From Eledone cirrhosa (Eukaryota): a DNA stretch of 64,000 nt. Location: contig OZ024742.1 in assembly GCA_964016885.1 (NCBI GenBank), forward strand, positions 287,928,001 through 287,992,000, read 5' to 3'. The notes beneath the pieces were generated by a model. That model did not search any database. It worked only from the letters and a program-made list of their open reading frames with translations, and had not been told where the DNA came from. The translations under genes were made by a program, and so were the position numbers. Shown here in pieces: positions 1,009 to 64,000 of the stretch. Numbering within the stretch: position 1 is the stretch's first letter; every line of letters starts with the position of its first letter.

Positions 1009-1579
1009 TACCCACTCTACTAAGTATTGAGTACTCTGGTGCGTTATGGCCCATCTGGTTCTTTACCACACTTCCTTCGTTATATATATATATATATAAA
1101 CGGCAAACAAATAAAGCAAACGACACAGTACAATGAAAAAATATAATATTAGTTTTACGCTTGATACAGTAGGAAAAGAGTTTTAACAATCCGCGGACGC
1201 TTGTCATTCCTCAGAAAAGAGAATGGGAAAGAGAAGATTGAGGAGACGGGCAATGGAAGAAAAAAATTATATATGATGACTGTAAACTCTGCTAAGAGTA
1301 TTGCAATCGCTTGTCAGATTATAGAGTTTGGTGCACTTTTAGGCTACGGCCAGCCACACGAACCTGTAACAGATCCTGGACAAGCAATGCTTGTGCTTTG
1401 AAGGTTTTTTAAGTGGGAAAAGGCCTTGCACTCGACCAATCCCACTCTGAGCATCGAGAACACTACCCGAAAAGGAGAACTTGTCAACATCATCGGATGC
1501 TTCCGAAGCCACAAGTTCTTTTCAGTGTCCCTCTCCTTGAAAGGTGTTGTGACAACAGCTGGGGGCCTCTCTCTCTCAC

Positions 1580-3356: not shown

Positions 3357-3613
3357 GCGTTCCTAAAGGAAGTTTGTAAGTTTAATCGTATATAAGAGAA
3401 AGTTGCAGCATGTATGTAGTTTTATCGAATTTTAAGGGGTGTAGAGAGAGAGGTAATCAGATTGTATTAGAGGGGTAAAGCGTCATGTATTTAGTTTTAT
3501 CGATTATTTCCGTAACTGTGGGTGAGTTTGAATGAAATAAATAGTCGTTGACATTCTTACAGACTTTGAGTCGAATAGGTTTGAAATTGTGCAAATGTAT
3601 AAACATGGAACAT

Positions 3614-3697
<84 letters not shown>

Positions 3698-3710
3698 TGC
3701 TTTTTATAGA
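2617..3710 (-). mobile_element. Non-autonomous Helitron inside a tektin intron
   Basis: Minus-strand 5' TCTATA start, 3' hairpin CCCGAGCAACGCCGGG followed by CTAG (2617-2644). Internal ~90-bp duplication (2913-3095) and (CT)n/(CA)n tracts. Confidence 0.7.
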
Positions 3711-3743
3711 TAATGATGATATATAGATAACAGTTAACTTTAC

Positions 3744-3966
3744 CTTTTGAAGATGAGCTTGCATTTTATTACGAGTGTCTGTAGTTTCTCGAATACGAGC
3801 GTTAAAAGCGTTGTTGACGGCATTAAATTGACTCCACATACCATTGGCACACTGTCTAAGACATGCATCTATTTCTCCGCGAAGACGCTCAGAATTGGCT
3901 CGTTCCTTCTGCGAACGTAGCAGGTTATGTTGCGTGTAACGGCTCCACGAGTCTGGGATACTTAAG
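3744..3966 (-). CDS. Tektin-3/5-like gene, internal exon (223 nt)
   Basis: cacag acceptor and gtaaag donor. Translates LSIPDSWSRYTQHNLLRSQKERANSERLRGEIDACLRQCANGMWSQFNAVNNAFNARIRETTDTRNKMQAHLQK, similar to TEKT3 (VPESWAKF..NILRSQSER..EMWNQFNKVN..KIQTHLAK, recalled from memory). Confidence 0.93.
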
Positions 3967-4048
3967 CTGTGAATAGCATATGTTGGGAAATGAATCTTTA
4001 AAACTTTTATTGAAATCTTTTGTCATATTTAGCAATTTCATAATCTCG

Positions 4049-4080
<32 letters not shown>

Positions 4081-4407
4081 AAAAGAAAGCAGTATTGGAA
4101 AGGACTATACATGTCATAAATGAGAGGAAAAGAAGAAGAGCAAGGACTACTAGACAAATGAAGAAAGAAACGGGGAAGGAGAGAGAGTGACAGACATTAC
4201 ACCTAGGTCAGAGCGGTATTTCGGCTGCCCTCCGCGGACAAAATACCAAAGGAATTTCCGCGGACAATAAAAATGTACATAAAATATCATGCAAATACTA
4301 AAAAGACCCCCTCCCCCTCCCCCCCCAAAACAAGCAAAAAACAAACAAACAAAACAAAAACAACAACAGCCATAACAGCCAACGAAAAATGTATGTATAT
4401 TCCTTAC

Positions 4408-4551
4408 GTGTTAGCAGCGTTTTCTATTCCTGGGTAGTAACCGATACCGGCCGATGAGTTTCTTAAGTGATGCATTCGATCATCTATAGTCTGAGCATGC
4501 TCTTTGTCTTTCATGTCGATATCGAGAGAATGTAACGCAGCACGGTTCATT
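4408..4551 (-). CDS. Tektin-3/5-like gene, internal exon (144 nt)
   Basis: tttag acceptor and gtaagg donor. Translates MNRAALHSLDIDMKDKEHAQTIDDRMHHLRNSSAGIGYYPGIENAAN, similar to TEKT3 NRASQHELEKDLSDK..IDDKCHHLRNTS. Splices in frame to the next exon. Confidence 0.92.
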
Positions 4552-4710
4552 CTAAAGAAATCAATGAAATAATAGTTGAAAAGGATATGAAATGCAACAT
4601 TGCAAAATGTTTCTAATTTTACATGGATCACACATATCGTTATATATATATATATACAATGTATGAATATGTGTTGGTTAGTTACCGATACTTCAGTATG
4701 CAGGGTACAG

Positions 4711-5233: not shown

Positions 5234-5832
5234 TCGCAACAATGCAGCACGCCATTTTTGCATTCATATATATATTTTTTCCCCTAGCTGTGGTGTGTCT
5301 TCTTTCTATCTCCTTACTGCTATCCCCTTTCTCTCTCCCCCTTCTCCCTCCTTGTAACTCTTGCTTTCCTTCACCCCCTCTGCTGGTCACACACTCTCTC
5401 AGCTGGCCTCTTCCTCACACTTTAGCTCACTCACTCTCTGCTACTCCCCCTCTCTCACTTCCTCCCGTCTGACCTGTGTGAAATCCTTTTCTCTCTCACT
5501 TTTCGCGTGGTTCGGACGTGTCTGCCTCTTCTCGTCGATTGATTTGTTCGGACTTATGTCCACAAGTATCATTGACTTGTCTCTCTTTTCCTCTCTTTAC
5601 GTTGCATTACTACTATGTTGTTTGTTTACTTTCCTCATTCAATTCGCTCTGTCCCAATAACTTATTTTAGTTATTGCTCCCACTGATTTTGAGGTGTCTG
5701 GTCTTTAATGCGAAGAAATACCAATGATAGTCGGCAGACAACTGATGATGGTCAGTCCCGTTTCTCGGTCTATTTTCATTCATATGTATCACACTCGCAA
5801 CAACGCAGCACGCCATTTTTTCATTCATATAT
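5234..5832 (+). mobile_element. Non-coding terminally redundant 561-bp element (retrozyme-like) carrying a permuted hammerhead motif
   Basis: ~40-bp direct repeat at 5234 and 5795, CT-rich body, (TA)n flanks, homology to 40539-41124 and 62741-63669. Confidence 0.7.
5678..5749 (+). ncRNA. Candidate permuted hammerhead ribozyme, copy 3 (GUC site, predicted cut after 5698)
   Basis: GGTGTC|TGGTCT TTAAT GCGA A GAAATACC AATGATA GTCGG C AGACAA CTGATGA T; stems complementary with two mismatches. Confidence 0.6.
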
Positions 5833-10082: not shown

Positions 10083-10308
10083 AAGATATGGAGAAACATT
10101 CCGTCGTCAGGGAAGTCTATTCTCATCTAAGTTTCCAGGCAAAGCGAGGACTCTGGAAACTTATTAAAAAATAATTCAGTGGATAGGAAATAGCAAAGCG
10201 TGGACTGAATTCCTAGCCATTGAGAAAATCACTGCCTCTGCGTCTGTGGCAAATTCAAAAAGAATCAATCACGTGACATCGAGGTCAATCACGTGATTGA
10301 ATTCTTTT

Positions 10309-12055
10309 TGACTTATGTCGGACAGACGGGACGTCGCCTGGCGGACCAAGTCACGGAGCACCTCCGGGATATTCGTCTCGGGGGCAGTTCCCCCATCGCC
10401 CGCCACTTTGGTGGCCCTGGACACTCCGCACGCCATCTCACAGTCTGTGGCCTACTCCAGTGCCACGGAACACCCGCCCATCGCCTTACGGTCGAACAAC
10501 GCACTATCTTCATCTTACAGACCCATAATCCCCCGGCCTGAACTCCCCACCCTTATTCCTTTAGCGTTCGACCGCCCCCCTCTCCCCACACTTATCCCCC
10601 ACTAACACCACTAACACACCCCTCCTTTTCACCGCCCACCCCACACTAACAATATTAACACCTCCACTCCACCCCTCATCTGACCACCCTTCCCAACTAA
10701 CATACTAACATCCCTTCCCTCTCCTCTTCTCCTCCTCCCCCTCCTTATCACACGCACACACGCACCAACTTACACCACCCACCCCACACGCAACTAACAT
10801 CACTAACACCCCCAACCCACGCACACGTACCCACACACCCTCGTACACCACCAACTCTACACACCCTACTACCACTAACCCCCACTCACACCTGCATTCC
10901 ACCCCTCCCCACCTCCCGCATACTAACACCCACTAACACCTCTTCACCAAACTACACACACACCAGTACACCACACTCCCTCCATAGAACCACACACACC
11001 CTTCTCTCCCCGCTCCACCCACACCCCCGCTCCACACTCACTCATCCCACTAACACCCCTACTAATACACACACACACACACACCCTCCTCACTCCAACT
11101 CTCACACCTACCCATCCTCGCCTCCCTACCATTCCACCGACTGCTGCTATGCCCTTCCCACCACCTCCCAGCACCAACTGACCACAGCGCTCCCACTGCT
11201 GACCACTTCCTGTTGCGCGCGCACCCCACATCTCTCCTCTTCCGACCACCGCTTCTTGGATTACCCACACGCGAAATTGACTTATAACCAAATCTCCAAA
11301 CATCCGTGGAACTTACCAACTTTTCAACCATCCTCTTACGCCATCACCTATATAACTCACCCACACACACACCCCCAAAAAATTTTTTCTCCACACGCCA
11401 CCCACACCCACAACACGCTTAAACCCCACACACACGTGCTTCCCACCACATATTTACACCCTCACCCTCCTGATTCCTCTCCCCCCACCCCCCTATCCAC
11501 ACACGCACAGACACTCCGACCCACAAAAACACCCCCCACACACACCTCTTCCTGAACATGCAACCCCGTTCTTCCCCCAACCCTCACTTTCACATACACA
11601 CACACACACACACGCACACCTACACACACACACCACCTTCAGCCCTCCCCGCTCGGACACCCCATCTCCCTCTCCCCACTCCACCCGCCACCACCCCTAC
11701 TCACCCCACACCCTTCCACCACCTGTTTACCCCCCTTTTAACTTCAGTTTATTTTGATCATGCCTTTATTTTTAAATTTTCTCATTCCTTGTATTTTGAT
11801 CATGCTTTATTTTTATTTTTTATATATTTTTTGTCTTTATTTGTTAATTTTTCATTCGCACCGTTTCCTTTCGCTATATGTCTCTCCACCACTCCCCTAC
11901 ACACCTTTTGAACTCTGTTCCCACACACTTCTCACCTGAGGAAGGGCTTATGCCCGAAACGTCGTCCCCCACCTACCCCCCACTCTCCTGAGCGTGAATT
12001 TAATAAACATTTATTGTACTGCCTCTCTGTTCTGTCCCTGTTCAAATTTTTCATT
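10309..12055 (+). mobile_element. 5'-truncated Penelope-like element (Neptune type): GIY-YIG C-terminus, C/A-rich tail and pLTR
   Basis: YVGQTGRRLADQVTEHLRDIR..SPIARHF..H..RLTVEQRTIFILQTHNP matches the PLE GIY-YIG endonuclease. Followed by a long C-rich region, an HHR-like motif at 11934-11965, AATAAA at ~12002 and (TA)n. Confidence 0.85.
11934..11965 (+). ncRNA. Minimal hammerhead-like motif of the Neptune element
   Basis: CTGAGGA A GGGC-TTAT-GCCC GAAAC GTC; stem I is only 2 bp and there is an extra A in the core. Confidence 0.55.
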
Positions 12056-12121
12056 ATATATATATATATATATATACATATATATATACATATATACATA
12101 TATATATATACATATATATAT

Positions 12122-19119: not shown

Positions 19120-22100
19120 TCAGGATTTGGGCACCATGGCCCATTCGAGAAGAGAATTACTGTTTGCGGAGACATATCCGGGTGTGGGTGGTTTGTCCGG
19201 GATTACTTGGAGGAATTTGTCCAAAGACTTCTTGAATTTTGTGTGGTCAGTTTCTGTTTTGACGTGTCCTGGTGTGATGTTGAAGAGAGCAGGGCCGATT
19301 GAGGTGAAATAATTGTGCCGTATTGTTGTTATGAGTTGCGATTTAGATTTTTGAATGGGACGGATAGCACGGGGCCCAAGCCTTGGGTGTATCTTGAAGG
19401 CGATGCCAACATCATTTGGGCAGTGATGATGGAACATTTTCCACATCATGCAGATAATATAACGCTCACGGCGACGTTGGAGTGAGTAAAGTTTCAGGTT
19501 TTCCAATCGACCCCAGTAATCAAGGTCTGACATGCCATCTATCTTTTTCGTGATTGCCCTTTGAGGAGCTTCAAGTTTCATGATACTTTGTTTCGTGTGG
19601 GGAGACCACAGTGGACAACAGTATTCAAGGTGTGGTCGGGCGAAAGTAGAGAAGAGAAGGATAATGGTGCGGGAATCTCTCGACTGGAAGGTTCTGAGGA
19701 TCCAGGAACACATTCTGCGGGCCATGTCAACTTTGCTGCTTATATGCGTGGTCCAGCTTATGTTGCTGTCCACGGTTACTCCCAAGTCTCTGATGTTGTT
19801 AGATGCCACGAGAGTTTCCCCGGAGGGAAGGGAGTACGGGAGTTTCAGAGCATCCTCTTTTCCAAAGTGGATCAGTTCGAATTTGTCTTCGTTCAGTAAC
19901 ATGTTGTTCTTTTCTGCCCATTGGGTAACAGCCAGTAGGTCTGACTGAAGGCTTATCCGGTCATCCACGCCATTGATGACCTTTTGGAGCTTGGAATCAT
20001 CAGCGAAAATTTTAATGTTGCTGTGTTTGATGATGTCAGTGATGTCATTAATATAGATGATGAAGAGAAGTGGGCCCAACACAGTGCCTTGTGGGACTCC
20101 ACTACTGACTTTGGCTGGGCTTGATTTGACTCCCTCAACTACAACATGTTGGGTTCTGTTTGACAGGAAGCTCTTGATCCACTGCAGCAGCTTTCCAGTG
20201 ACACCAATATTGGACAGCTTTCTCAGTAGAATGTTATGATCAACCCTGTCAAAGGCCTTGCTGAAATCAAGGTAGATAACATCAGTGTTGGAACCCTCTC
20301 CCAAGGCTCTCAAAATGTCATCAAAGTGATGCAGTAGTTGCGTCAGGCAATCCCTTCCATTACGGAATCCATGCTGGTTGGAGTTCAGCATATTGTTACT
20401 CTCAAGGAAGTGGGTCATTCGCGATCTCACCACTCGCTCAAATACCTTAATGATATGAGAGGTGAGTGAGATTGGACGGTAATTCACGGCAAGGGATTTG
20501 TTTCCCTTTTTGAAAACTGGGACAACAGACTGGGATAGAAGGTTTTCTGGCACATATCCAGCATCCAGTGAGTTCCGCCACAGATTGGCAAGAGGAGAAG
20601 CAAGTTGGTGTTGACACGCCTTCAAGACACAAGCAGGGAACCTATCGGGACCTACTGCTGAATTATGCTTGATTTCCTTTATTGCCGCCAAGACATCAGG
20701 GGCGCCAAACGTTATGTCCGATAAGGTGTAATGGGGAGTAACATCGCCGATACAGCCCAGATCGGCCATATCAGGATTGCTGAAAACAGAGCAGTATTGT
20801 TTCTGCAGTATCTCACCCATGGTTTTAGCATTGTCTTGAAGAGTGCCATTTTCATCAATTAGAGGGCCAACAGTAGAGCCAGTGATTTTGTGTTTTTTTG
20901 CAAATGAAAAGAACACTTTGGGATTAAGTTTGATCTTCTCAATGGCCCAGGCCTCTTCAGCTCTTCTCTGATTGTTGATGAGGGACATTATGTTGTTTTG
21001 GAGGTTATGTTTTTTAATCTCTAGTGATGAAATGGCAGTCAAGTTGATGTGTTGCTGCTGACAGTATTTCAGATTGTTGATTTTTTTGTTCGTTCTCTTA
21101 ATTTTTCTGATGAGCGTTTTTCTATTTCTAGGGATTCTGCTCTTAGATTTGTTTATAGTTCTTAATGGGGTGTGTTTAGCACATATGTTTGTAACAGTGT
21201 CCACAAATGTCTGCCAGGACTTTTTGATGTTAGTGGGTGTATGAGTGTGCGTGAAGGACCAGTCGACATGTGCAAGATCATGACTGATCGCTTCCCAGTT
21301 TGCATTGTGGAAATCCATAGCGTCAAACGGATGGACAGGAGAAATGACATTGGGTTTGTATATTGGACGGTGGAATCTCAGATCACAGAGAACCATGTCA
21401 TGATCAGAGAGTAGAGTTTTCTCCACTGCAATATTGTGGATATTGTCAGTGTGATTGCTGAAAATTAAGTCTAGGACGTTTTTGTGGCACCTCGTTGGTT
21501 CGAGCACTAGTTGGGATAGGAAGAAATCATCCATGAAGTCAAGAAGCGATTCCACAGCTTCCCTGTCAGAGGTTGAGGCAGAAGAACCTGGTGGCAGGGT
21601 GTTTGTGGACCAGTCAACTCCGGGGAGGTTGAAGTCCCCCATCATTAAGATGTTGTCAGGGTGACACTCTTGGATGAAACACTTTATGCTGTTGAGGCAT
21701 TCCTTGAAGCATGGTACAGGCGTTTGGGGTGGCCTATAGAGCCCAACTACTAATAGGTTGTTGGTTTGACTGAATACAGTGACTGCCTCACAGTATCCAT
21801 TAGTGAATATGTTCATAGCCTCTGTTGAGAAAGAATTATGGACATAAATGGCAGTTCCGCCCTTTCTTCTGCCAGCGCGATCAGCACGGATGGCTTTGAA
21901 ATTTTTCACTTTCACCTCGGCTTCCAAGTGGAGGTTACTGAGATGGGTTTCAGTGAGGACGAAGAAAGGGATGTGGTTTGGATGGACATCAATCCAGTCC
22001 TCCAGGAATTTGATCTTCCATTTTTGAGTATTGGTGGAAGGGCTGATGCCTTGGGCGTTAAGCAAAAATGTAGAGGCGAGAGTGGATGGTTTTAATTGTT

Positions 22101-22140
22101 TTGGTGTGTTGTTAATTTGTTTGTTTGTTAATGGCAGCAA
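19120..22140 (-). CDS. LINE ORF2: apurinic-like endonuclease plus reverse transcriptase
   Basis: APE motifs LTETHL, YRPP, GDFN, LDLIF, SDH; RT motifs [36 protein letters not shown]; CR1-type RPHLEYC..WSP. Uninterrupted for 1006 aa, with no AUG before the APE domain. Confidence 0.95.
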   Translation of the reverse strand: MLPLTNKQINNTPKQLKPSTLASTFLLNAQGISPSTNTQKWKIKFLEDWIDVHPNHIPFFVLTETHLSNLHLEAEVKVKNFKAIRADRAGRRKGGTAIYVHNSFSTEAMNIFTNGYCEAVTVFSQTNNLLVVGLYRPPQTPVPCFKECLNSIKCFIQECHPDNILMMGDFNLPGVDWSTNTLPPGSSASTSDREAVESLLDFMDDFFLSQLVLEPTRCHKNVLDLIFSNHTDNIHNIAVEKTLLSDHDMVLCDLRFHRPIYKPNVISPVHPFDAMDFHNANWEAISHDLAHVDWSFTHTHTPTNIKKSWQTFVDTVTNICAKHTPLRTINKSKSRIPRNRKTLIRKIKRTNKKINNLKYCQQQHINLTAISSLEIKKHNLQNNIMSLINNQRRAEEAWAIEKIKLNPKVFFSFAKKHKITGSTVGPLIDENGTLQDNAKTMGEILQKQYCSVFSNPDMADLGCIGDVTPHYTLSDITFGAPDVLAAIKEIKHNSAVGPDRFPACVLKACQHQLASPLANLWRNSLDAGYVPENLLSQSVVPVFKKGNKSLAVNYRPISLTSHIIKVFERVVRSRMTHFLESNNMLNSNQHGFRNGRDCLTQLLHHFDDILRALGEGSNTDVIYLDFSKAFDRVDHNILLRKLSNIGVTGKLLQWIKSFLSNRTQHVVVEGVKSSPAKVSSGVPQGTVLGPLLFIIYINDITDIIKHSNIKIFADDSKLQKVINGVDDRISLQSDLLAVTQWAEKNNMLLNEDKFELIHFGKEDALKLPYSLPSGETLVASNNIRDLGVTVDSNISWTTHISSKVDMARRMCSWILRTFQSRDSRTIILLFSTFARPHLEYCCPLWSPHTKQSIMKLEAPQRAITKKIDGMSDLDYWGRLENLKLYSLQRRRERYIICMMWKMFHHHCPNDVGIAFKIHPRLGPRAIRPIQKSKSQLITTIRHNYFTSIGPALFNITPGHVKTETDHTKFKKSLDKFLQVIPDKPPTPGYVSANSNSLLEWAMVPKS

Positions 22141-23291
22141 TGGGAGTTTGTGCAGTGGGGTGATAGTGGAGGGTGGTGCTGGGTGATAGCTCGAATGTTT
22201 TTTTCCAGTTCTTTTGCCAGATTCATTATGGCTAAAAAAGAGGAAGAAGTTTCCTGTTTAGAAGACTGTTGGTGACTGTGGTAGTGGTTATTTTTATGTA
22301 GGTTATGGTTTTTGTTTTTGCTTTTATTTTCATTTATCCGACGGGTCCCCGGGAGATGGGTAAAGGGACAATCCCGGTCTAAACACAATCTGTCTCGCAG
22401 GGAAAAACGGCAGATTTGTGGATTCCTTGTTTGAGTTATTGGTGGTTGTGTTGGTGTTAAATTAGAGTATGTATTATGGTGGTGGCTGTTTGTGGGGATA
22501 GATCGTTTTGTCCTAGGTAAATGGGTGAATTTGCAGCCACTATCCGTACATATTCTATAGCGTAGAGAGTAGCGGCAAATGATGGGGTTTCGAGTGGGTG
22601 GGTATATGGGTGTGGGTGTTGTGAGAGGTGTAGATGATGGTTTGGGTAGGATTTGACGACCTTTGTGGACTGTGGGAGGGAGAGTTCTTGTTCTGGTATT
22701 AGAAGGTAAATTCCTTGACATAGCAGTAGACAAAAATGTTGTAGTAGTAGTAGTAGTAGTAGGCAGAGATGTTGGCAGTGGTGATGATTGGACTGCTGGG
22801 CCAGAGAAAGGATGTGGCGTTTCATGCTGTGAGACAGAGGCTACTGGGGGGTCAATAGTTTCATTTAGTAGATCGGCCATTGTTGATGAATCAAGGAGTG
22901 GTTCACACTGTTGTTGTTGCTGTTGTTGATGTTGTTGTTGTAGCTGTTGTTGATGTTGTTGTTGTTGCTGTTGTAGCTGCTGTTGTTGTTGTTGTTGCTG
23001 TTGTAGCTGCTGTTGTTGTTGTTGCTGCTGCTGGACAGCATTCGAAGAGAAAACACACCGTAGTTTATCCAAATGTTTATTGATTAATTTAAAAGCAATT
23101 TCGATTTGCTTTAATTTATTTTGAATCTGTTGTTCAGATCGAGTTTTCAAAAATTGAACTGTACGTTTAGCAATGTCGTTCAGAGATGAAGCATCTATAT
23201 CTTCTGTTTGGGAAAGGCAATGCCATGTGTTTATTAGAATGTCGATTTCATTATCAGACCAGTTCTGTTTGGATTTTTGCTGGTTAGCCAT
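22128..23291 (-). CDS. LINE ORF1: Myb/SANT-like N-terminus, polyQ tract, two CCCH-type zinc fingers
   Basis: AUG start; WSDNEIDILINTW..RSEQQIQNKLKQI; CRYSLRYRICTDSGCKFTH and CRFSLRDRLCLDRDCPFTH. Confidence 0.85.
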   Translation of the reverse strand: MANQQKSKQNWSDNEIDILINTWHCLSQTEDIDASSLNDIAKRTVQFLKTRSEQQIQNKLKQIEIAFKLINKHLDKLRCVFSSNAVQQQQQQQQQLQQQQQQQQQLQQQQQQHQQQLQQQHQQQQQQQCEPLLDSSTMADLLNETIDPPVASVSQHETPHPFSGPAVQSSPLPTSLPTTTTTTTTFLSTAMSRNLPSNTRTRTLPPTVHKGRQILPKPSSTPLTTPTPIYPPTRNPIICRYSLRYRICTDSGCKFTHLPRTKRSIPTNSHHHNTYSNLTPTQPPITQTRNPQICRFSLRDRLCLDRDCPFTHLPGTRRINENKSKNKNHNLHKNNHYHSHQQSSKQETSSSFLAIMNLAKELEKNIRAITQHHPPLSPHCTNSHCCH

Positions 23292-23578
23292 TCTAGTTTT
23301 GAGTGTGTGTGTGTTTTAGTTAAGTATTTCAATATATATATATTTTTTTTTTAAATTTATTTTTGATTTATTTTTGTTTTTTGTTTTTCTTGTGTGTGAG
23401 TGAGAAGCGTATATATATAAATATGAGTATATATATATATGTATATTCTGGTTATTTGAAATTAATTAAGTTAATGAAAAGACGAAAGTATATAATAATA
23501 ATTTGTAGTTAAAGGAAAATGTACTCACAAGTTCGTGTGTGTGTGTTTTAGTTAAGTATTTCAATATGTATGTATATA

Positions 23579-27583: not shown

Positions 27584-29353
27584 TTTACTCTTTTACCCTT
27601 TTACCTGTTTCAGCCATCCGGCTGAGGCCATGCTGGGGCACCGCCCTTGTTACTACACATTTTATCTCCAGCCTGTATAGGTTGGCCACTGGTGTAAGAG
27701 GGAGTTTGTTGCTGCTGCCCTTAGGTTTCCCTCGTGTCTTGCTGTGGGCTCATCCGGGATCCTGGATAACAAGGTGTCGAGATGTTTCTTAAAGACATCC
27801 ACCTCCACGTCATGCAAGTCTCTCAGTTGCCCCGGCAGCCTGTTGAAGAGTTGAGGGCCCTTGAATCCCAGGCTATTGCAATACCTGCTCCTTATTCTAG
27901 ATGTCGAAGACGGGACCTTTGGCACCACACAGTGACGTCCTGTTCGACGGTTGGTCCAGCTCCCAATGCCAAAGTTTGGTGCTAGTCCCTCCAGGATTTT
28001 CCCCATGTAGATCACTGCGTATCTCTCCCGTCTTCGCTCCAAGGAGTAGAGGTTCAGTTCCTTTAGCCTCTCCCAGTAGCTTGTCTCCCTCATCTTGGCA
28101 ATCCTCTTGGTGTAGCTTCGCTGGATTGCCACAAGCTCCGTGGTTAGTTTGACACTATGGGGTGACCACAACTGGGAGCAGTAGTCCAGGCGGCTTAGGA
28201 CAAAAGTCCTCCACAGTGTCAACATGGTGTCTCGATCTCTTGTCCGGAAAGTCCTCAAGATCCAGCCAGCGAGTCGTATGCACGTTGTCGCCACTTTCAT
28301 GATGTGTGAAGAAAAAGATGCATCATCGCTCATGTCTATGCCCAGGTCTCGTATCGATTTTGACACGAGGATATCGGTCCCTCCTGGTCCTGTGTAGCTG
28401 TGTTCCACTATATTTGTGTTTGCAGGTTTGTATTGTAGGGCTTGGAATTTGCCAGCATTAAACTGCATGTTGTTTTCTTCCGCCCATCTGTATATGGCAT
28501 CCAGATCCTGCTGTAAAAGGGCAGCGTCAGCCGGGTTTTTGATTGCCTGTGCTACCTTAGTGTCATCAGCATAGCTAGTGAGGGATGTTGTTGCATGCAC
28601 CACAGAGGGCATGTCCGAGAGAGCCACCAAAAACAGTAATGGTCCCAGGACTGTCCCCTGGGGCACCCCACTTGTTATCGGTGTTTCCCTCAAGAGGGCC
28701 CCATTTGCTGCGACTGCCTGGCTTCTGTCCCTTAGGAAGCCATGCAGCCACTCACCTACTTTTCCAGTTATGCCGAGTCCGTGTAGTTTGTGACATATCA
28801 TTCCGTAGTCGACCTTGTCAAAGGCCTTCGCAAAGTCAAGATATATCACGTCCACATGTGAGCTGTCTAGTAGTTGTCTCAGTACCCAGTCGTAGTGATG
28901 TAGCAGCTGTGTAAGGCAGCTTCTTCCTGGGCGCAAGCCATGTTGCGTGCTAGTCAGGCGGTCATTTTCTTCGAGGAAAGTGATTAGTTTCTTTCTGACA
29001 ACTCGCTCCATGACCTTACTGATATGCGACGTCAGGGAGACTGGCCTATAGTTCTTGGCCTCCGCTCTACTACCTCCTTTATGGATAGGGCATATTGTGC
29101 CTTCTTTCAGCTCCCTGGGTAGTACACCGCTAGCCAAGGAGCTTCTGAAGAGCATCTTCAGTGGAGTTGCTAGGGCCCGCTTACATATTTTTAAGAGAAT
29201 TGCTGGGAATCCATCAGGTCCAGCATCCGAGTCTGTTCTAATTTCATCAATGGCGTACACCACATCCTCCTCCGTTATGTCTATGTGGTTGATGGTTGCC
29301 ATTTCTTGATGTAGTGTTGTGGCATCAAAGAACTCCTCTGGCTTCGTTATTTG
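27584..29353 (-). mobile_element. 5'-truncated CR1-group LINE (second family) with an open RT frame at 27662-29353
   Basis: [48 protein letters not shown]; 3' end GGTGCCCCAGCATGG..GCTGAAAC plus a (GTAAAAG/A)n tail. The N-terminus given in the ORF track is microsatellite. Confidence 0.92.
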
Positions 29354-29382
29354 CATATATATATATATACATATATATTTAC

Positions 29383-29414
<32 letters not shown>

Positions 29415-29463
29415 GTATATATATTTACATATATATATATATATATACATATATATAAATATG

Positions 29464-29516
<53 letters not shown>

Positions 29517-29528
29517 GTATATATATAC

Positions 29529-29576
<48 letters not shown>

Positions 29577-29610
29577 GTATATATATACATATATATACAT
29601 ATATATATAC

Positions 29611-29649
<39 letters not shown>

Positions 29650-29748
29650 CGTATATATATACATATATATACATATATATATACATATATATACATATAT
29701 ATATACATATATATATATACATATATATACATATATATAGATATACAT

Positions 29749-29779
<31 letters not shown>

Positions 29780-30322
29780 TATACATATATATATATATGT
29801 ACATATATATACATATATATATATATGTACATATATATACATATATATATATATATATACATACGTATATATATGTACTTATATATACATATATATATAT
29901 ACATACGTATATATATATACATATATATACATATATATACATACGTATATATATATACATATATATACATATATATATGTACATATATATACATATATAT
30001 ATGTACATATATATACATATATATATGTACATATATATACATGTATATATATACCTACATATATATATATACATATATATATATATACATATATATATAC
30101 ATATATATATACATATATATACATATATATACATGTATATATATACCTACATATATATATATAAATATATATATACATATATATACATGTATATATATAC
30201 CTACATATATATATATATACATATATATATACATATAAATATATATATACATATATATATACATATAAATATATATATACATATATATACATGTATATAT
30301 ATACCTACATATATATATATAC

Positions 30323-39300: not shown

Positions 39301-40538
39301 TACATAATTTCTTCCGGCAGAAGTTGCGAACGACAGATATTATCAACAATGGAAAGACTAAAGGAAAGTTTTCTTGGTCCGATCTAAGGATAGGCTTTTT
39401 TCCTTTCCTGTTACACGTATAGAATTTTAAATTTTTATACATTTAAACTAAGATTAAAGACTAAATATGTTTGCATTTAATTTTATTAATGTTTTGTTTA
39501 TGCTCAAATGCACAAAATCAGCGTAGATGACGAATTGTGAAAGTTATAAGAATGTCAGATAGGATATTTTGCTGTATTTGTTTGGGACTTACCGAGGTCA
39601 ACTTTGCCTATCAACATTTCGAAGTCGATAAAGGACTTGTCTTATACCGGCGTCGATCTCACCATCACCTTCTCTCTCTAAAAAGAAAGACGACGAAGAG
39701 GATGAAGGAAAAAGAAAAAAGAATAAGAAAAGAAAAGAAAAAGAATCTGCTGAATTCAGATCTGGAGAGGGATAGGCTCCACCCTACGATTCCATCAAAT
39801 GTTAAGGGCTCAGGGATACATGTAGAAAACCAGTGAGAAATTGAATTAAAAGTGTGAATCTAGCAGGAATCGATTCGATTGTCACCAGCGTCACACACAT
39901 ACGTAAACATACAAACACATATGTGTATGTGTGTGAATAAGTGAGACAGGAAAAAACAAGGGAAGAACTGGAAGAAAAAAAGGAAAAGAAAGAAAGAAAA
40001 AAGAAAAGAAAGAAAGGTAAAAACGAAGGCGGGAAGGAAAGATAAATACAGAACGAAAAAGAAATAAAAGAAAGAATCACCGAAAGAAAGAAAGGAAAAA
40101 GAAGAAAAAAAAGAAAGGAAAAAGCGAAAAAGAATAAAAGAAAGAAAAGAAAGGAAAAAGAGAAAGAGATATAAATAAATATAAAGCAAAATTCACAGAA
40201 ATATATAGAAGTTGGGAGTGGTTGTGAGGGAGCCCGAACTCAATAATTTTTCCAGTCCGGAAAGGCCACAACCAGCAATTCCTTTCTGGGATGACACATG
40301 AATTAATTTCCTCTTATTTATTTTCGTTGGTTTTTTTTTGTTGTTTTGTCGTTTTTTTTTCTTCTTCTTTTATTCATTTCCTTCCTCTTTTCCCCCCTCC
40401 CAATTCAGAATTTCAAAGTTGTGTGACGGCTTTGTAAACACACAGTACGGTATGATTGCATCTTATGTGGTTATAAATACTAGTTTTAGCATACACGGTG
40501 GGAATTTTTTTTAATTAAGCAAATATATATATATATAT

Positions 40539-41117
40539 AAACATGAGAAGAAAGAAGAATACTGCGTGGTTGCACATGGGTTACATATGATAAAATTAGT
40601 CCTTCGTCAGTGATTTGCCAACTATCATTGATATTTCATCGCATTAAAAATCATATACCTCAGGTTGGTGCGAGCAATAACTAAAAAAAGCTATTGGGAC
40701 AAGTAAATCGCGTAAAGCGAGGGGGACAAGTAAACAACATAGAAGGATGAAAGCAACGCAAAGATGGGAATAAACAAGCAACATGGTTATCCGGTCAGCA
40801 TAAACTGGGTGGATTTCATGAACGAGAGAGTTACAGACCGTCCGATGTGAGTGAGATGTGAGCAAGAAGAGAACCCACTACAAGCCAAACGTGTGGAAGT
40901 GAGAAGGGGAGAAACAGAGAGTGAGTGAGTGGAAGTGCGAGGAAGAGGTCAGTCGAGAGAAAGTGTAACTGACAGAGGGGGCGAAAGAAGGTGAGAGCAA
41001 CAGAGAGAACGGGAAGCAGTAAGAGAGAAACAGACAATCGCAGCCAAGGTAAATATGTATAAAAAAACATGAGAAGAAAGAAGAATACTGCGTGGTTGCA
41101 CATGGGTTACATATGAT

Positions 41118-41124
<7 letters not shown>
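40539..41124 (-). mobile_element. Non-coding terminally redundant 526-bp element (retrozyme-like) carrying a permuted hammerhead motif
   Basis: ~60-bp direct repeats 40539-40598 and 41065-41124; (TA)n flanks; homology to 5234-5832 and 62741-63669. Confidence 0.75.
40603..40673 (-). ncRNA. Candidate permuted hammerhead ribozyme, copy 2 (AUA site, predicted cut 40654/40653)
   Basis: TCGC A CCAAC CTGA GGTATA|TGATTT TTAAT GCGA T GAAATATC AATGATA GTTGG C AAATCA CTGACGA A. Confidence 0.7.
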
Positions 41125-41159
<35 letters not shown>

Positions 41160-44478: not shown

Positions 44479-45374
44479 AAATTAAGATAAATTAAATGAA
44501 TTTAATCTAAATCGAAATTGTGGGTGTCATTAATTGGTGAAATATATTTGTCCAGCATGGATTGCTGGACATTATTCTTCCTTGTTGATAATCCAATAAT
44601 ATCCACTTTCCGTGACTTATCATTTGATTAATTGGTGAAATATATTTCTTTAATGGAATATATACAGGGAAGATTAATCATATTAAAAGGTATCTATTTT
44701 TGAAGTTGTAGTCAACTTTATTTATTTGTTACCCAACTAGCTATGCGTGGTTACACGCTTGTAAAAATTATCTCCTGTGATTATTCATGTATATATATAT
44801 GTTAATCAATTTCTAGTTATTATAAAATGCTCGGACCTATCTTTGAGCTTATTTTCCAGGCGATATGGCGCACGCCGTTATGACATGACACCCACAATTT
44901 CGATTTAGATTAAATTCATTTAATTTATCTTAATTTTGGATATAGATATATAAATACGGCTCCTTAATTGTAGAGCTATTTCTGTTGAAGGGAATCGACT
45001 GCTGTTTCTAGTTGTCGAATACCTATTCACGCCACTGAAACGAGGCTGCTGTGATGTGTAGACGCAACACGTGGTAGCGGCCAGTTGAGGATTTGAACTC
45101 GCTGTGTGAGCATGGATTGCTGGACATTATTCTTCCTTGTTGATAATCCAATAATATCCACTTTCCGTGACTTAGCATCTGATTATTTGGTGAAATATAT
45201 TTCTTTAATGGAATATATACAGGGAAGATTAATCATATTAAAAGGTATCTATTTTTGAAGTTGTAGTCAACTTTATTTATTTGTTACCCAACTAGCTATG
45301 CGTGGTTACACGCTTGTAAAAATTATTTCCTGTGATTATTCATGTATATATATATATGTTAATCAATTTCTAGT

Positions 45375-45381
<7 letters not shown>
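44479..45381. repeat. ~555-bp unit in 1.5 tandem copies with an inverted leader
   Basis: 44554-44824 repeats at 45109-45381; 44479-44530 is the reverse complement of 44886-44937. Confidence 0.75.
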
Positions 45382-45454
<73 letters not shown>

Positions 45455-45484
45455 CATGATCAAAGTTCTGTTTAAATCATTTAT

Positions 45485-45533
45485 TTGCTTACAATTGTTT
45501 CTTCCAAACCTCGGTTTGGAGTCTTCGGAGCAA
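45485..45533 (-). ncRNA. Hammerhead variant with CCGAAGA core, in the inverted pLTR
   Basis: Reverse complement of 48591-48639. Confidence 0.6.
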
Positions 45534-45991
45534 TTTTTCAATGATTTTTTACATCCTTGACCTCCTTTCCAACACAAGAGACATATAGAAACATATGCAT
45601 ACATTGATGCACAGTGGGTTGACATCCATTATAATAATATAGCATGGCAATATACATACAAAGATTAAAGACATATTGAAGGACAAAATTAAAGTTAAAA
45701 TACAACATTGGCAGTTTACGAAGATAAAGCAAGAGGATAGTTTGAAGTAGTTAGTGTATGCAATAGTTACACGTGGGGCATGCACGTGTGTCTTATTTAT
45801 ATAAGATTATAGTGCGGCATGGTGTTACATGTAATACAAGCAGTTTAAGCAGGCAATCAAGAGTATTATGGGGGTTGTATTGGTAAAGTATTTTTTTTAT
45901 ATATATATGTATGATATCAAAAATATTAAAAGTATTAAAAGTGAGAAGCAAAACAACGCCACGGTCCTCGCATACACCACCATTTTCACAA

Positions 45992-47105
45992 GAAACGTAA
46001 ACATATTTAACAATAACTCGCAATATTATAATCAGGCATTAGCTAGATCAGGCCATAATATAGAAATCGAGTTCCTACCTACAAAAACACATAGCTACAA
46101 CATTATTTCGCACAACATGTCCATGAGGAAATTTAGTAATAAGAATAGCAACCACACACACAATAATACGGAGGATGCCAACAAAAGTAACCCACACCAC
46201 AGAAATTACCATAGTACCATAAAAAGAAACAACTCACCAGACATAAAAAACAAAAATAGAAGAAGAAATAATACATTTTTCAACCCTCCTTTCAATCTAA
46301 ACGTCTCTACCAACCTACCTAGGGCTTTCTTCTCACTACTAGATAAAAACTTCCCATCTGGCCACAAGTACCATAACCTTTTAAACAAAAACACTATTAA
46401 AATCTCCTACTCTACTACGCCTAACATAGCATACCACATAGCTAGTAGCAATAAAAGAAAAATTAATTCTTACTTCCAACAAACTAAATCACAACAGACG
46501 ATAAACCTTCAAAATAACATTATATCAACTAACCCTAATAACAATAGAAATAATAACAATAGCACTAGTGTAAGCAATAACGCTGGGAACGACAACCTCC
46601 ATAACCATAATCCTATAGCTACCATCCGGACTTCTACACAACATAATAACCGGCAGACTAACACCCAGAATAATTGTAACTGTAGATCTAATAGAACCTG
46701 CCCTTTAGATAAAAAAAATGCTTAATCAAGGATATCATATACTCATGCACCGTCACAACTAGCAACTCTTCTGAAACGTATATAGGCTCTACTTCAAACT
46801 GCTTCAAAACCAGATACAATTCGCACCTCCACTCTTTCAAAAAACACAGTCTAGCCAACTCCACTTCACTATCTAGCTACATACACTATCTAAAAACTAA
46901 AAATAAATCATATACACTTAAATGGGAAGTGATAGGTAACGCGACATCGTACAAACCACCTAATAAATTTTGTAACCTCTGTCTACTAGAGACCCATACT
47001 ATTATCTTCTCAAACCATAACCTCCTTAATAAAAAATCAGAAGTGTTCGCGTCTTGCCAGCACCGCTTCCGACACTCCTTCCAAAACTTTAAACCCAATA
47101 TATAA
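45992..47105 (+). pseudogene. Naiad-type PLE ORF C-terminus (RT thumb, linker, GIY-YIG), frameshifted at the A8 run 46711-46718
   Basis: FFNPPFNLNVSTN..IKISYSTTPN; CNC..CPL..CLIKDIIYSC..YIGST..FKTRYNSH..CNLCLLE..LLNKKSE..CQH; stop at 47103-47105. Confidence 0.85.
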
Positions 47106-48590
47106 CAATGTCAGACTTGAACCCGTCACCACCTCTAGCAACAAACCTCAAGGGCACACCTTACACTACATCTCCACACTCATTGTTCCACTTTAACGCA
47201 AATAGTGACACCCTCCTAGTACCTTTTACCCTATAGATATCCCCTTGTACATCTACTTTTGGTATATTTGCCTTCAATTACTTAGACTACATTACACCAT
47301 TATATAATTAATGTAAACTTTAAGCACGGAATTGGTTGTGCTAATGTTGTTCTGTGTATGGAGTGCCATCATTTGATAAATGGAAGCTTAATTAATTTAT
47401 TAACATAAAAGAGCTATATAACCTATATGCTGAGTGCAATGAATTATGTACAAGTGATGTATGAGTTATACATACATGTATGACTTGATGGTCAGATTAG
47501 TGTCATTGTAAGTGAGAATTGATCTCTGGTCTACCCTAGTGATATTTAACTTTGCCATGCAATCAGACATGCACTGACCCAGAGCTTACCAGGAGTTATA
47601 TATAGAAGTGATTCTAATAAAACCCTGCCAGGTTCTGCGGGTAGACTACACTTACAAAGATCACTGATTTGGGGATCTGACTCTTCATGTAGAATATTCA
47701 GTTGTGGCACTCTATGATAGAAGGTAATCATCCTAATATGAACACCTTTAGTACTTCTTGATAGACTACACCTGTAATTTATAGATAAGATACTTAAATT
47801 TAGAAACTGTTTATAACCTTATATGATAGGGACTCATTTGAGACACCATTTAATGTATATTAGGATAATAAATTTAGTTATAGAAATCAGCTAGTTACCT
47901 CCCCTTACGCATTAACACCCCTTAATCACACACACACTTCCGGAAAAAATAATACGATGTCAATTTTCGCAACAAAATCAACCTGCTCTATAGAATTGAT
48001 TTAGAGAACAACAAACGGTAGTGTTATAACATGGTTCTTCAAGCATCCATTGTTGAATCATCGTGGATTGTGTAAGGGACATATAATATATAAATTGCGT
48101 TTCCTGGATTGTGAAAATGGTGGTGTATGCGAGGACCGTGGCGTTGTTTTGCTTCTCACTTTTAATACTTTTAATATTTTTGATATCTCTCTACACACTG
48201 GCTTCTATATCATACATATATATATAAAAAAATACTTTACCAATACAACCCCCATAATACTCTTGATTGCCTGCTTAAACTGCTTGTATTACATGTAACA
48301 CCCTGCCGCACTATAATCTTATATAAATAAGACACACGTGCATGCCCCACGTGTAACTATTGCATACACTAACTACTTCAAACTATCCTCTTGCTTTATC
48401 TTCGTAAACTGCCAATGTTGTATTTTAACTTTAATTTTGTCCTTTAATATGTCTTTAATCTTTGTATGTATATTGCCATGCTATATTATTATAATGGATG
48501 TCAACCCACTGTGCATCAATATATGCATATGTTTCTATATGTCTCTTGTGTTGGAAAGGAGGTCAAGGATGTAAAAAAATCATTGAAAAA

Positions 48591-62270: not shown

Positions 62271-62506
62271 AGATGAAATCGAAAATGCAACTGGAGTCTT
62301 ATTTTTTAAAAAATATATGTATATTTATTTGGTTCCTTTACCGGTTTCGCAGTTCTTCTGCTTTTCAAAAGTAGAGTTGAGATGGAGGGTCTGTGGTTTT
62401 TCTCACTTTTGAAAAGCAGAAGAACTGCGAAACCGGTAAAGGAACCAAATAAATATACATATATTTTTTTTTAAATAAGACTCCAGTTGCATTTTCGATT
62501 TCATCT
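62271..62506. repeat. ~100-bp near-perfect inverted repeat (inverted pLTR ends)
   Basis: Arms 62271-62372 and 62404-62506; each carries an HHR variant and AATAAA. Confidence 0.8.
62406..62441 (+). ncRNA. Minimal hammerhead variant with a U3-A8 core (mirror copy at 62336-62371 on -)
   Basis: CTT TTGAAAA GCAG-AAGAA-CTGC GAAA CCGG TA AAG. Confidence 0.55.
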
Positions 62507-62551: not shown

Positions 62552-62836
62552 TATATTCGTGTACAGATATTTTTGCATACGCAATAACAAAATATAAACA
62601 AAAGTATTTATTCGCGATAAAGTATTGATTTTCTTCGCACGGAAAAAACCCTGGTAATCTATGACGAATTTTTTTTATAAGCACAAAATGTAGACACCAT
62701 CCCGAGGCCGGAGTATTCCGTACTTCTCTGTACATATATATCTATTTCTTCTCACTTTCCGTTGCTTAAACCTTTTTGTTTGTTACCCTGGCGTCCCCTT
62801 TGTTTACGTGTCCCAACGACTTTTTTTAGCCGTTGT

Positions 62837-62907
62837 TCGCACCAACCTGAGGCATATGGCCCTTAAAGCGATGAAATGCCTGGGACGGTTGGAGGGTCAC
62901 TGATGAA
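62837..62907 (+). ncRNA. Candidate permuted hammerhead ribozyme, copy 1a (predicted cut after 62856)
   Basis: TCGC A CCAAC CTGA GGCATA|TGGCCC TTAAA GCGA T GAAATGCC TGGGACG GTTGG A GGGTCA CTGATGA A. Confidence 0.7.
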
Positions 62908-63329
62908 GGACTTACTTTTTCATATGCACCACCATTTGCAACGCGCAGCCATCATTATTATCATATTTACACATAATTTTTCTTCTGCTGCCACTCGTCT
63001 GTTTCGCTCTTTGTACCTTTTAACCTTTCTCGTTCTTTGTACCTTTTACCCTTTCTAGCAGTCTCTCTCTCTGTTAGCCTCCTCCTCAACTTTCACTCAC
63101 TCATTCTCTGTCACTACCTCTCCTCCTCCTCTTTCCTCCTCCTCCTTCAAGTTTGACCTGTGTGTAATTCTTTTCTCGCGCGGTCTTGACCAAGCTGGTA
63201 TGGAATTTTTTTCTCTCTCTCTCTTTCGTCTGCGACTTCACAAAACTTATGTTTACCGAATTCGTTGACCAGACCCCTTTATCTTCTTCTTCTTCTTCTT
63301 CTTCTTCTTCTTCTTCTTCTTCTTCTTCT

Positions 63330-63364
<35 letters not shown>

Positions 63365-63585
63365 TCTTCCCCCCCCCCGTTAGACCTGTGCGAAATTCTT
63401 TCCTTGCTCACATTTCAACCAGGTTTGATGGTCTTTTGTCTCTTGTTCACGATTTCACCGAGTTTATATTCATAGAGATCTGGGACTTGTCTATTTCTTC
63501 TCACTTTCCGTTGCTTAAACCTTTTTGTTTGTTACCCTGGCGTCCCCTTTGTTTACGTGTCCCAACGACTTTTTTTAGCCGTTGT

Positions 63586-63656
63586 TCGCACCAACCTGAG
63601 GCATATGGCCCTTAAAGCGATGAAATGCCTGGGACGGTTGGAGGGTCACTGATGAA
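63586..63656 (+). ncRNA. Candidate permuted hammerhead ribozyme, copy 1b (predicted cut after 63605)
   Basis: Identical to 62837-62907, offset 749. Confidence 0.7.
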
Positions 63657-64000
63657 GGACTTACTTTTTATATATATATATATATATATATATTAAAATA
63701 ACAGATTAAAGTTTAAGCAAAGAATCGCTGCTTTCACCCTTAACGGGATCTTCTGAAACTAAAAAAATCAATCTGTGAACGCAGAAGTAAATATTTCGAA
63801 AAACGTTGCAACAGAAGAAAGAGAGGAAGACGATACTTTGGTTCGTGGAAACGTTCCCTGGCAAAGAACGAAAAAAAACGAAGATATTACGTCGTTATTT
63901 GGAGCGGTGAAAACAATTACACGCAAAGACAAAACCACGTTTATGGTATAACTGAAGTCGTAGACTAAAATACTATTTAGGGAACCGAATGATTCTCGGC

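Follow-up and report, generated by a model that had tools for sequence, protein, structure and literature searches.

Two fixed 3′ end sites, scattered 5′ starts and a predicted scrambled hammerhead in a non-coding repeat of Eledone cirrhosa

Two related repeats with a predicted ribozyme, at 40539 and at 62741 of the 64-kb window (the whole stretch of 64,000 nt that was analysed), carry terminal redundancies at different points of the same circular map. The original prediction read this difference as a trait of two subfamilies, and as the result of variable start points during reverse transcription around a circular RNA. The locus thus raises the question of where such copies start and stop, and of what kind of RNA was copied.

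The insertion and its predicted ribozyme

The element at 40539–41124 is read on the minus strand and has (TA)n runs on both sides. This insertion and its relatives in the window are as follows, where E1 and E2 are the two 3′ end sites analysed below.

40539–41124, minus strand: subfamily A insertion; a single 526-nt unit with a further 60 nt, 5′-truncated, 3′ end at E2
41065–41124, minus strand: upstream member of the 60-nt direct repeat; this insertion is truncated at its 5′ edge, and other copies start elsewhere
40539–40598, minus strand: downstream 60-nt repeat, the 'tail'; contains E1 (about 40588) and terminates at E2 (40539)
41050–41058, minus strand: internal TA-rich tract directly behind the internal E2 position; mostly (TA)4 across copies, with one change here
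40523–40538, no strand assigned: (TA)n run of the target next to the 3′ end, read from the sequence
41123–41157, no strand assigned: (TA)n run of the target next to the 5′ end, read from the sequence
62741–63669, plus strand: subfamily B insertion; 749-nt unit plus 180 nt, ribozymes at 62810–62911 and 63559–63660, 3′ end at E1
5234–5828, plus strand: subfamily C insertion; unit of about 561 nt, 3′ end at E2

We observed that 40539–40598 and 41065–41124 form an exact 60-nt direct repeat with a period of 526 (65 of 67 positions are identical when it is extended), and that it starts immediately after ribozyme block C (40616→40599). In the subfamily B copy, an exact 180-nt repeat (62741–62920 and 63490–63669, period 749) includes the whole ribozyme at 62810–62911. 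The redundancy of about 60 bp next to the ribozyme in a 526-bp unit, as well as the ribozyme-spanning redundancy at 62741, had therefore been described correctly. The A and B units share ∼67% identity and are colinear on the circular map. The subfamily A unit has 3942 candidate places in the genome (3.0 Gb), so it is not a chance arrangement. Stem I, said to be completely rewritten, reads UGAUUU:AAAUCA in the A copy at 40539 and UGGCCCU:AGGGUCA in the B copy at 62741; four of the six pairs have changed, while the two core-adjacent pairs have not. The core, said to be unchanged, is the same except at its variable position (CUGACGA versus CUGAUGA).

The predicted ribozyme consists of the following parts.

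40599–40700, minus strand: predicted type-SGC hammerhead plus leader strand, from block order and covariation
40648–40659, minus strand: block S, with the stem III 3′ strand, the UA cleavage doublet and the stem I 5′ strand; predicted cut between 40654 and 40653
40630–40642, minus strand: block G, with GCGA (leader-paired), U11.1, GAAA and the stem III 5′ strand; from covariation
40599–40616, minus strand: block C, with the stem I 3′ strand, CUGACGA, A10.1 and GGAC (leader-paired); from covariation
40663–40700, minus strand: leader, with GUCC, an 8-bp hairpin (40675–40696), UCGC and CCAACC; bridges both strands of stem II and the helix alongside stem I; from covariation
40618–40629, minus strand: strand resembling a kink-turn (3-nt bulge, GA, U), which also holds the partner of CCAACC; faces UGA at 40660–40662

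The predicted fold is present in each unit, with the order S (cut site), G (GAAA), C (CUGAnGA), and with the core elements CUGAnGA, GAAA and UH as well as stems I and III. We aligned 17 representatives of the families found here. Of 22 pairs in stem I, stem III, the lone pair of stem II, the leader–G helix and the helix beside stem I, 17 have changed in both partners. In these 22 pairs, 89.8% of the cells are paired, a level reached by none of 500 shuffles and to be compared with 31–46% in slid controls. For the leader hairpin and the helix between the leader and the 3′ side of block C, 7 of 12 pairs change on both sides; 26 of 500 shuffles match this number and none of 500 match it on cells. 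As the structure was drawn from the window copy and the rows are related, these shuffle counts are not probabilities. Between blocks C and G, stem II is one covarying pair, 10.1:11.1, which is paired in 136 of 155 copies (A:U 103, U:A 24, G:U 9; unpaired 19) and is extended through the leader helices. A 3-nt bulge followed by GA stands after stem III in 16 of the 17 rows, with GA opposite in 12 of 13 close rows, an arrangement that we take to be a kink-turn.

An Rfam search over the whole window and the element returned no hammerhead, only microRNA and snoRNA noise below the gathering scores; a permuted order would lead one to expect this. When the unit was folded by minimum energy, a method blind to pseudoknots, z was 0.69 and the shape was not rod-like. 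Four more divergent SGC hammerhead families of the same genome (L221, L223, L224 and L225; about 1420–1552, plus strand) share this leader layout. We predict that the ribozyme is a type-SGC hammerhead, that is, one with a non-circularly permuted order of blocks. In the literature, we came across this scrambled order only in environmental sequences and one bacterium; type SGC (HRIMA-1 and a variant) is reported from metatranscriptomes and from no genome of a known organism in the account considered here (PMC10085705). A topology known from anonymous environmental RNA can now be placed in thousands of animal genomic copies.

Other repeats and genes were noted alongside. A partial tandem at 44553–45380 (plus strand) has a period of about 555 nt, 98% identity over 273 nt, a 3′ TA run and an inverted piece upstream; a hammerhead core was looked for in it and none was found. 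Locus L189 (3300–5300, minus strand) holds a fourth subfamily with four near-identical 494-nt units followed by a TA run. Just upstream of the B copy, 62296–62479 is a near-perfect inverted repeat with a stem of >60 bp, a candidate MITE or fold-back insertion. One or more Tektin-3-like exons lie at 3504–4700 (minus strand), with best matches in Argonauta and Octopus (85% protein identity; 76% or less against other molluscs, over the full match), which points to an octopod host. Two LINE-type elements lie at 19120–23315 and 27662–29878 (both minus strand); in the former, endonuclease and RT lie in a frame of 1045 aa without stops, upstream of which is a frame of 395 aa.

Ends of the insertions

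The original prediction held that copies with dispersed start points and more than one unit in length would support a circular template, and that fixed termini shared by all copies, or attachment to a coding element, would speak against it. We mapped the termini of the copies onto the repeated unit, using samples of the best 30–40 matches by similarity, which are not random. The subfamily A sample without selection for ends came from a mid-unit query; two of its 30 loci are the same insertion, leaving 29, including the window copy.

Two 3′ end sites, E1 and E2, about 45–55 nt apart, are common to subfamilies A, B and C; in subfamily A, E2 lies 115 nt 3′ of the predicted cut. With the mid-unit query, all 29 A insertions end at E2, and their 5′ ends fall at 27 positions; 10 of the 29 cross the predicted cut twice. 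When all A samples were taken together (78 arms pooled from three queries, two of which favour E2), E2 was the end in 76 arms, E1 in one, and one was an inverted piece. In subfamily B, 30 loci correspond to 26 insertions, of which 16 end at E2, three at E1 (including the window copy), one is unreadable and six are head-to-head. Wherever both ends of a head-to-head insertion could be read, E1 was paired with E2 (14 of 14: six in B, seven in C and one in A); two further head-to-head pairs of subfamily C have one broken arm. This E1 plus E2 pairing is a signature of Penelope-like elements (PLEs). Arrays of over four units were also seen, with E2 ends. The redundancy ranges from a few bases to several units; in every case its anchor is E1 or E2, and TA runs lie on its flanks.

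A TA run is present at 76 of the 78 3′ ends and at 61 of the 78 5′ ends of the A arms, and target-site duplications are unreadable inside such runs. A (TA)4 also sits internally right at E2 in most A copies, so that a nicked target could pair with the RNA there.

Start points are therefore variable in one sense only: the 5′ starts are dispersed (62 distinct ones in the 78 A arms), while the 3′ ends, from which copying sets out, are fixed at E1 or E2. The mapping gave the dispersed 5′ starts and the copies longer than one unit (19 of the 29) that had been put forward in favour of a circle, together with 3′ ends that are fixed. Conversely, shared fixed termini were found on the 3′ side only, and the copies are not attached to a coding element. 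Since A, B and C all use both E1 and E2, the different redundancies at 40539 and 62741 do not distinguish the subfamilies; the copy at 40539 ends at E2 and was truncated late, and that at 62741 ends at E1 and was truncated earlier.

The features of PLE-type insertion are all present, namely 5′ truncation, partial tandems, inverted copies and a tail at one end. We are highly confident that these copies arose by PLE-type priming at two fixed sites. Taken by itself, the claim about termini describes ordinary PLE behaviour; redundancy with dispersed 5′ ends occurs in any PLE partial tandem, and so is alone no proof of a circle. The insertion ends give in-genome support for PLE chemistry in retrozymes, the two arms of an inverted insertion starting from different sites, and the mechanism of the PLE tail and inversion becomes testable on a 0.5-kb non-coding RNA.

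The RNA template and rival explanations

Passage through the predicted cut was unscarred in 137 of 139 crossings (87 in A and 52 in B). Within 5 nt of the cut, one indel was seen in A (3.1 expected) and one in B (0.6 expected), two against 3.7 in total. We also compared successive units of the same insertion at polymorphic sites. They were discordant at 14 of 243 (87 expected) and 2 of 126 (58 expected), together 16 of 369 against 145, where the expectation was computed for independent templates. Divergence was lower within than between insertions, both in A (2.6%, 203/7689, versus 3.8%) and in B (0.9%, 97/10693, versus 2.0%), and in one array (L186) a private variant is present in all four units. 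Among 78 A and 40 B arms, shared 5′ flanks were limited to two local duplications. No 5′ end fell at the E2 junction among the 29 A insertions, and a linear template beginning at E2 was rejected on this count (0 of 29).

Some sites depart from this uniformity. At one locus, L003, alleles change at six sites between units, and this is a switch between two templates. Unit position 494 (window 40631, a stem III base) was discordant seven times, in both directions, making up half of all such discordances, and the CTT tract of subfamily B varies in length between the units of one array. A signature of RNA editing was rejected, as the variants common to all units are not biased towards A-to-G, which accounts for 2 of 14 in A and none of 3 in B. 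Contigs of two sequencing runs, whose kind is not stated, cover the unit in pieces and are uninformative on expression.

The 5′ ends are not spread evenly around the cut. Those with a clean TA junction numbered 181 of 2286 (7.9%) at or just 3′ of the predicted cut, against 82 of 2715 (3.0%) and 29 of 1402 (2.1%) in the two next upstream windows, a 2.6- to 3.8-fold excess (Fisher p about 1e-14) between anchors that catch partly different subfamilies. Here a 5′ end was counted when the distance from a TA junction to a downstream anchor, placed just 3′ of the cut, was ≤20 nt, using minus-strand matches and one per locus. In one 30-copy sample, 9 of the 30 5′ ends were in the cut zone; among 33 listed loci, 12 5′ ends were at unit positions 479–480 (window 40645–40646), 7–8 nt downstream of the cut, versus eight at the cut. 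An earlier reading that 5′ ends do not pile up at the cut (4 of 37 simple junctions in 39 loci) was overturned by the normalised counts, which give a modest excess. This excess would fit a share of cut linear RNA or a pause at the pseudoknot, and some templates may therefore be linear.

Our best guess, which these sequence comparisons favour by a little, is a circular RNA template; circles are reported to form in vivo for related animal retrozymes (PMC7229834). The origin of the unit would be the 3′ end of a Naiad PLE. A multi-unit copy would be transcribed, cut at two hammerheads and ligated into a unit circle, while a PLE protein would nick (TA)n on one or both strands. Copying would then begin inside the RNA, at E2 for the main arm and at E1 for the second arm, perhaps assisted by the UA-rich tract of the RNA. 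It would go round the circle and halt at a random point, so that the terminal redundancy would be the overshoot beyond one turn. From the two fixed 3′ ends, the scattered 5′ ends, the E1 plus E2 arms, the unscarred passage of the cut, the alleles shared along an insertion and the covarying fold, we consider it slightly more probable than an even chance that the whole account holds: a 5′-truncated non-coding mobile repeat that borrows a Penelope-like enzyme and is primed on a circle produced by the predicted SGC hammerhead. Within this account, the circle is a weaker step than the two-site priming.

The same two-site priming could also act on an uncut linear transcript of several units, with the ribozyme slow or idle during copying and a circle unnecessary. 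We regard this as rather unlikely, but an uncut tandem transcript would leave DNA identical to that of a circle, and the unscarred cuts and shared alleles fit it equally well if the units of the master are near-identical. In vitro, the main substrate of a PLE was unprocessed RNA, and ribozyme mutants were still inserted (PMC11167929); published SGC ribozymes are slow (PMC10085705), and eight of nine Xenopus retrozyme dimers stayed uncleaved (10.64898/2026.07.22.740005). From such a template, however, arrays could not exceed the length of the master, and neither a common 5′ boundary nor a transduced flank was observed in the 78 A and 40 B arms, beyond the local duplications. The covarying fold retained across many families also speaks against an idle ribozyme, and the stops that gather at the cut suggest that cleavage is real. 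If the RNA is cut and stays a linear monomer, the enzyme would have to jump from its 5′ end to a 3′ end, on the same or another molecule. The several-fold excess of 5′ ends at or just behind the cut and the clear template switch at L003 are in favour of such jumps, but most copies run through the cut, and the indels near it (2 of 139 crossings) are not above background. As successive units nearly always carry the same alleles, the jumps would need to be precise and intramolecular, and we hold this explanation to be improbable.

It is less probable still that single units or less were inserted, and that the repeats grew later in the DNA by unequal crossover or slippage. The variable CTT tract within one B array is of the kind expected from such growth, which has been proposed for PLE-derived satellites (10.64898/2026.07.22.740005). 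However, crossover requires a pre-existing tandem, and redundancy of all lengths, with E1 or E2 as its anchor and TA runs around it, is the outcome expected of truncated copying; we therefore consider this very improbable. The model of the original prediction, in which reverse transcription starts arbitrarily round the circle and each subfamily has its own permutation, draws on the A and B copies of the window, which do end at different map positions. Both positions are used alike in A, B and C, and one end accounts for nearly all A arms, including every unselected one. For the 3′ ends this model is refuted, and as a whole we give it almost no credence.

Helper candidates, a proposed Naiad link and known systems

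No open reading frame was linked consistently to the ribozyme units in 150 loci, and RT plus GIY-YIG between the repeats was not encountered. Two PLE fragments in the window were considered as relatives of a possible helper. The first, at 10224–12058 (plus strand), is the 3′ part of a PLE that we take to be Neptune-like; it has a GIY-YIG fragment, a long repeat region, a terminal TA run and a canonical type I hammerhead motif at about 11937–11966. Its family is young (40 matches identical over 121 nt, open frames of up to 987 aa), and has TA targets and a U-rich CAU end word similar to that of the units. Against it as the helper stand its type I motif, a single 3′ end at all of 30 loci and the lack of clear sequence shared with the units; that the ribozymes belong to its loci was rejected, the cases being nested insertions. 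The second, at 45455–48000, is the 3′ fragment of another PLE with a C-terminal GIY-YIG (45835–47105, plus strand); its own end also stands upstream of it in inverted form, and by eye this end has a type I-like hammerhead with CCGAAGA replacing CUGAnGA. Its abundant family (58,329 candidates in the genome) shows no SGC motif and no clear sequence shared with the units, which makes it a poor candidate for the helper. Between the units and the young PLE families of this genome, no clear common sequence was found.

Naiads are reported to lack canonical hammerheads, some having core halves, in the part of that account cited here (PMC8557442). In its supplement, the Naiad ends of Octopus bimaculoides and O. 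vulgaris show by eye the order, leader hairpin loop and linker of subfamily C. Among 45 of the 54 published Naiad consensus ends, which mostly comprise the last 330–400 nt only, we found by eye eight SGC and six nematode CSG hammerheads.

Starting from a decayed Naiad RT of this genome, we reached intact relatives, of which three of five scanned had an N-terminal GIY-YIG, and kept 80 of 499 metagenome loci. In a strict scan of the 65 loci with ≥200 nt of 3′ flank, 12 had a non-circular hammerhead (11 SGC and one CSG) and none a canonical one; the antisense strands (0 of 65) and shuffles (0 of 195) gave no matches. The other 53 of the 65 flanks were without a hammerhead in this strict scan, many of the contigs being short. 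In the metagenomic SGC ends, block G pairs with the leader and not with block C. A relaxed scan of the 80 whole loci matched 17 on the sense strand and 3 on the antisense strand; as several of these matches lie inside ORFs and are likely to be false, we used the strict count. The CSG case (L383, 3′ flank, cut at about 3530) stands behind a Naiad-like ORF, CSG having been reported from only two sequences. The ends of bivalve Naiads and one cubozoan Naiad in Craig 2021 File S5 appear by eye closer to the twister consensus than to a hammerhead.

In this genome no intact Naiad was found, as 64 and 55 matches contained no open frame over 321 aa. The first Naiad RT pattern gave three matches, as did its control, and all three are decayed Naiad-like RTs; a word-index protein search from one Naiad remnant gave no matches. 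In 23 decayed Naiad remnants of this genome, no SGC ribozyme was seen at the ends and no sequence homology to the units was shown. The B copies are young (about 1% divergence within insertions), though the Naiads here are decayed. Outside the subscription journals, we found no literature linking non-circular or SGC hammerheads with Naiads or octopus PLEs, or hammerheads with kink-turns in retrotransposons.

Tentatively, and with somewhat less than even confidence, we propose that non-circular hammerheads may be the normal ribozyme of many Naiads, and that octopods may carry a Naiad-born retrozyme superfamily. It would have an active, kink-turn-bent SGC ribozyme and RNA circles copied round from two internal starts, and would have outlived its Naiad parent through the enzyme of another PLE clade. 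This would offer a possible answer to why Naiads seemed to be without hammerheads, as the scrambled order is invisible to canonical descriptors.

In its workings the element resembles an animal retrozyme that is mobilised by PLE chemistry, yet its hammerhead is not of type I. Animal non-LTR retrozymes are defined by type I hammerheads (PMC7229834; 10.64898/2026.07.22.740005), and a derivation from PLEs has been argued for type I elements (10.64898/2026.07.22.740005). Like them, as far as the cited parts of these accounts go, the units are non-coding, measure a few hundred nt, carry one hammerhead each, are dispersed as monomers to multimers and have a proposed PLE helper and origin. Unlike them, they have type SGC, and their ends are fixed at two sites, whereas those parts contain no mapping of ends. 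With HRIMA-1 and SGC as described (PMC10085705), the ribozyme shares the S–G–C order, the full core, a short linker between stems I and II and an extra helix beside stem I. It differs from that description in its upstream leader, the strand that provides the partner for block G and for the helix alongside stem I, in a one-pair stem II that opens on a four-way junction, and in the kink-turn-like motif that links stem III to the extra helix.

PLEs in general are described with partial tandems, an inverted truncated copy and a 30–40-bp tail at one end, and Naiads are biased to (TA)n (PMC8557442). The units resemble Naiads in their (TA)n targets, partial tandems, inverted 5′-truncated copies and tail, but they have no ORF and their repeats are of unit length. 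For the Poseidon PLE of Anolis, the cited part of the in vitro work (PMC11167929) describes two internal starts downstream of the hammerhead that define the tail, cutting and extension of both DNA strands, AT-rich targets and a canonical ribozyme. Here, too, there are two fixed sites downstream of the predicted hammerhead, and AT-rich targets. Poseidon primes without target homology, whereas the UA-rich tract at E2 could pair with (TA)n; and its ribozyme is canonical, whereas the one predicted here is of type SGC.
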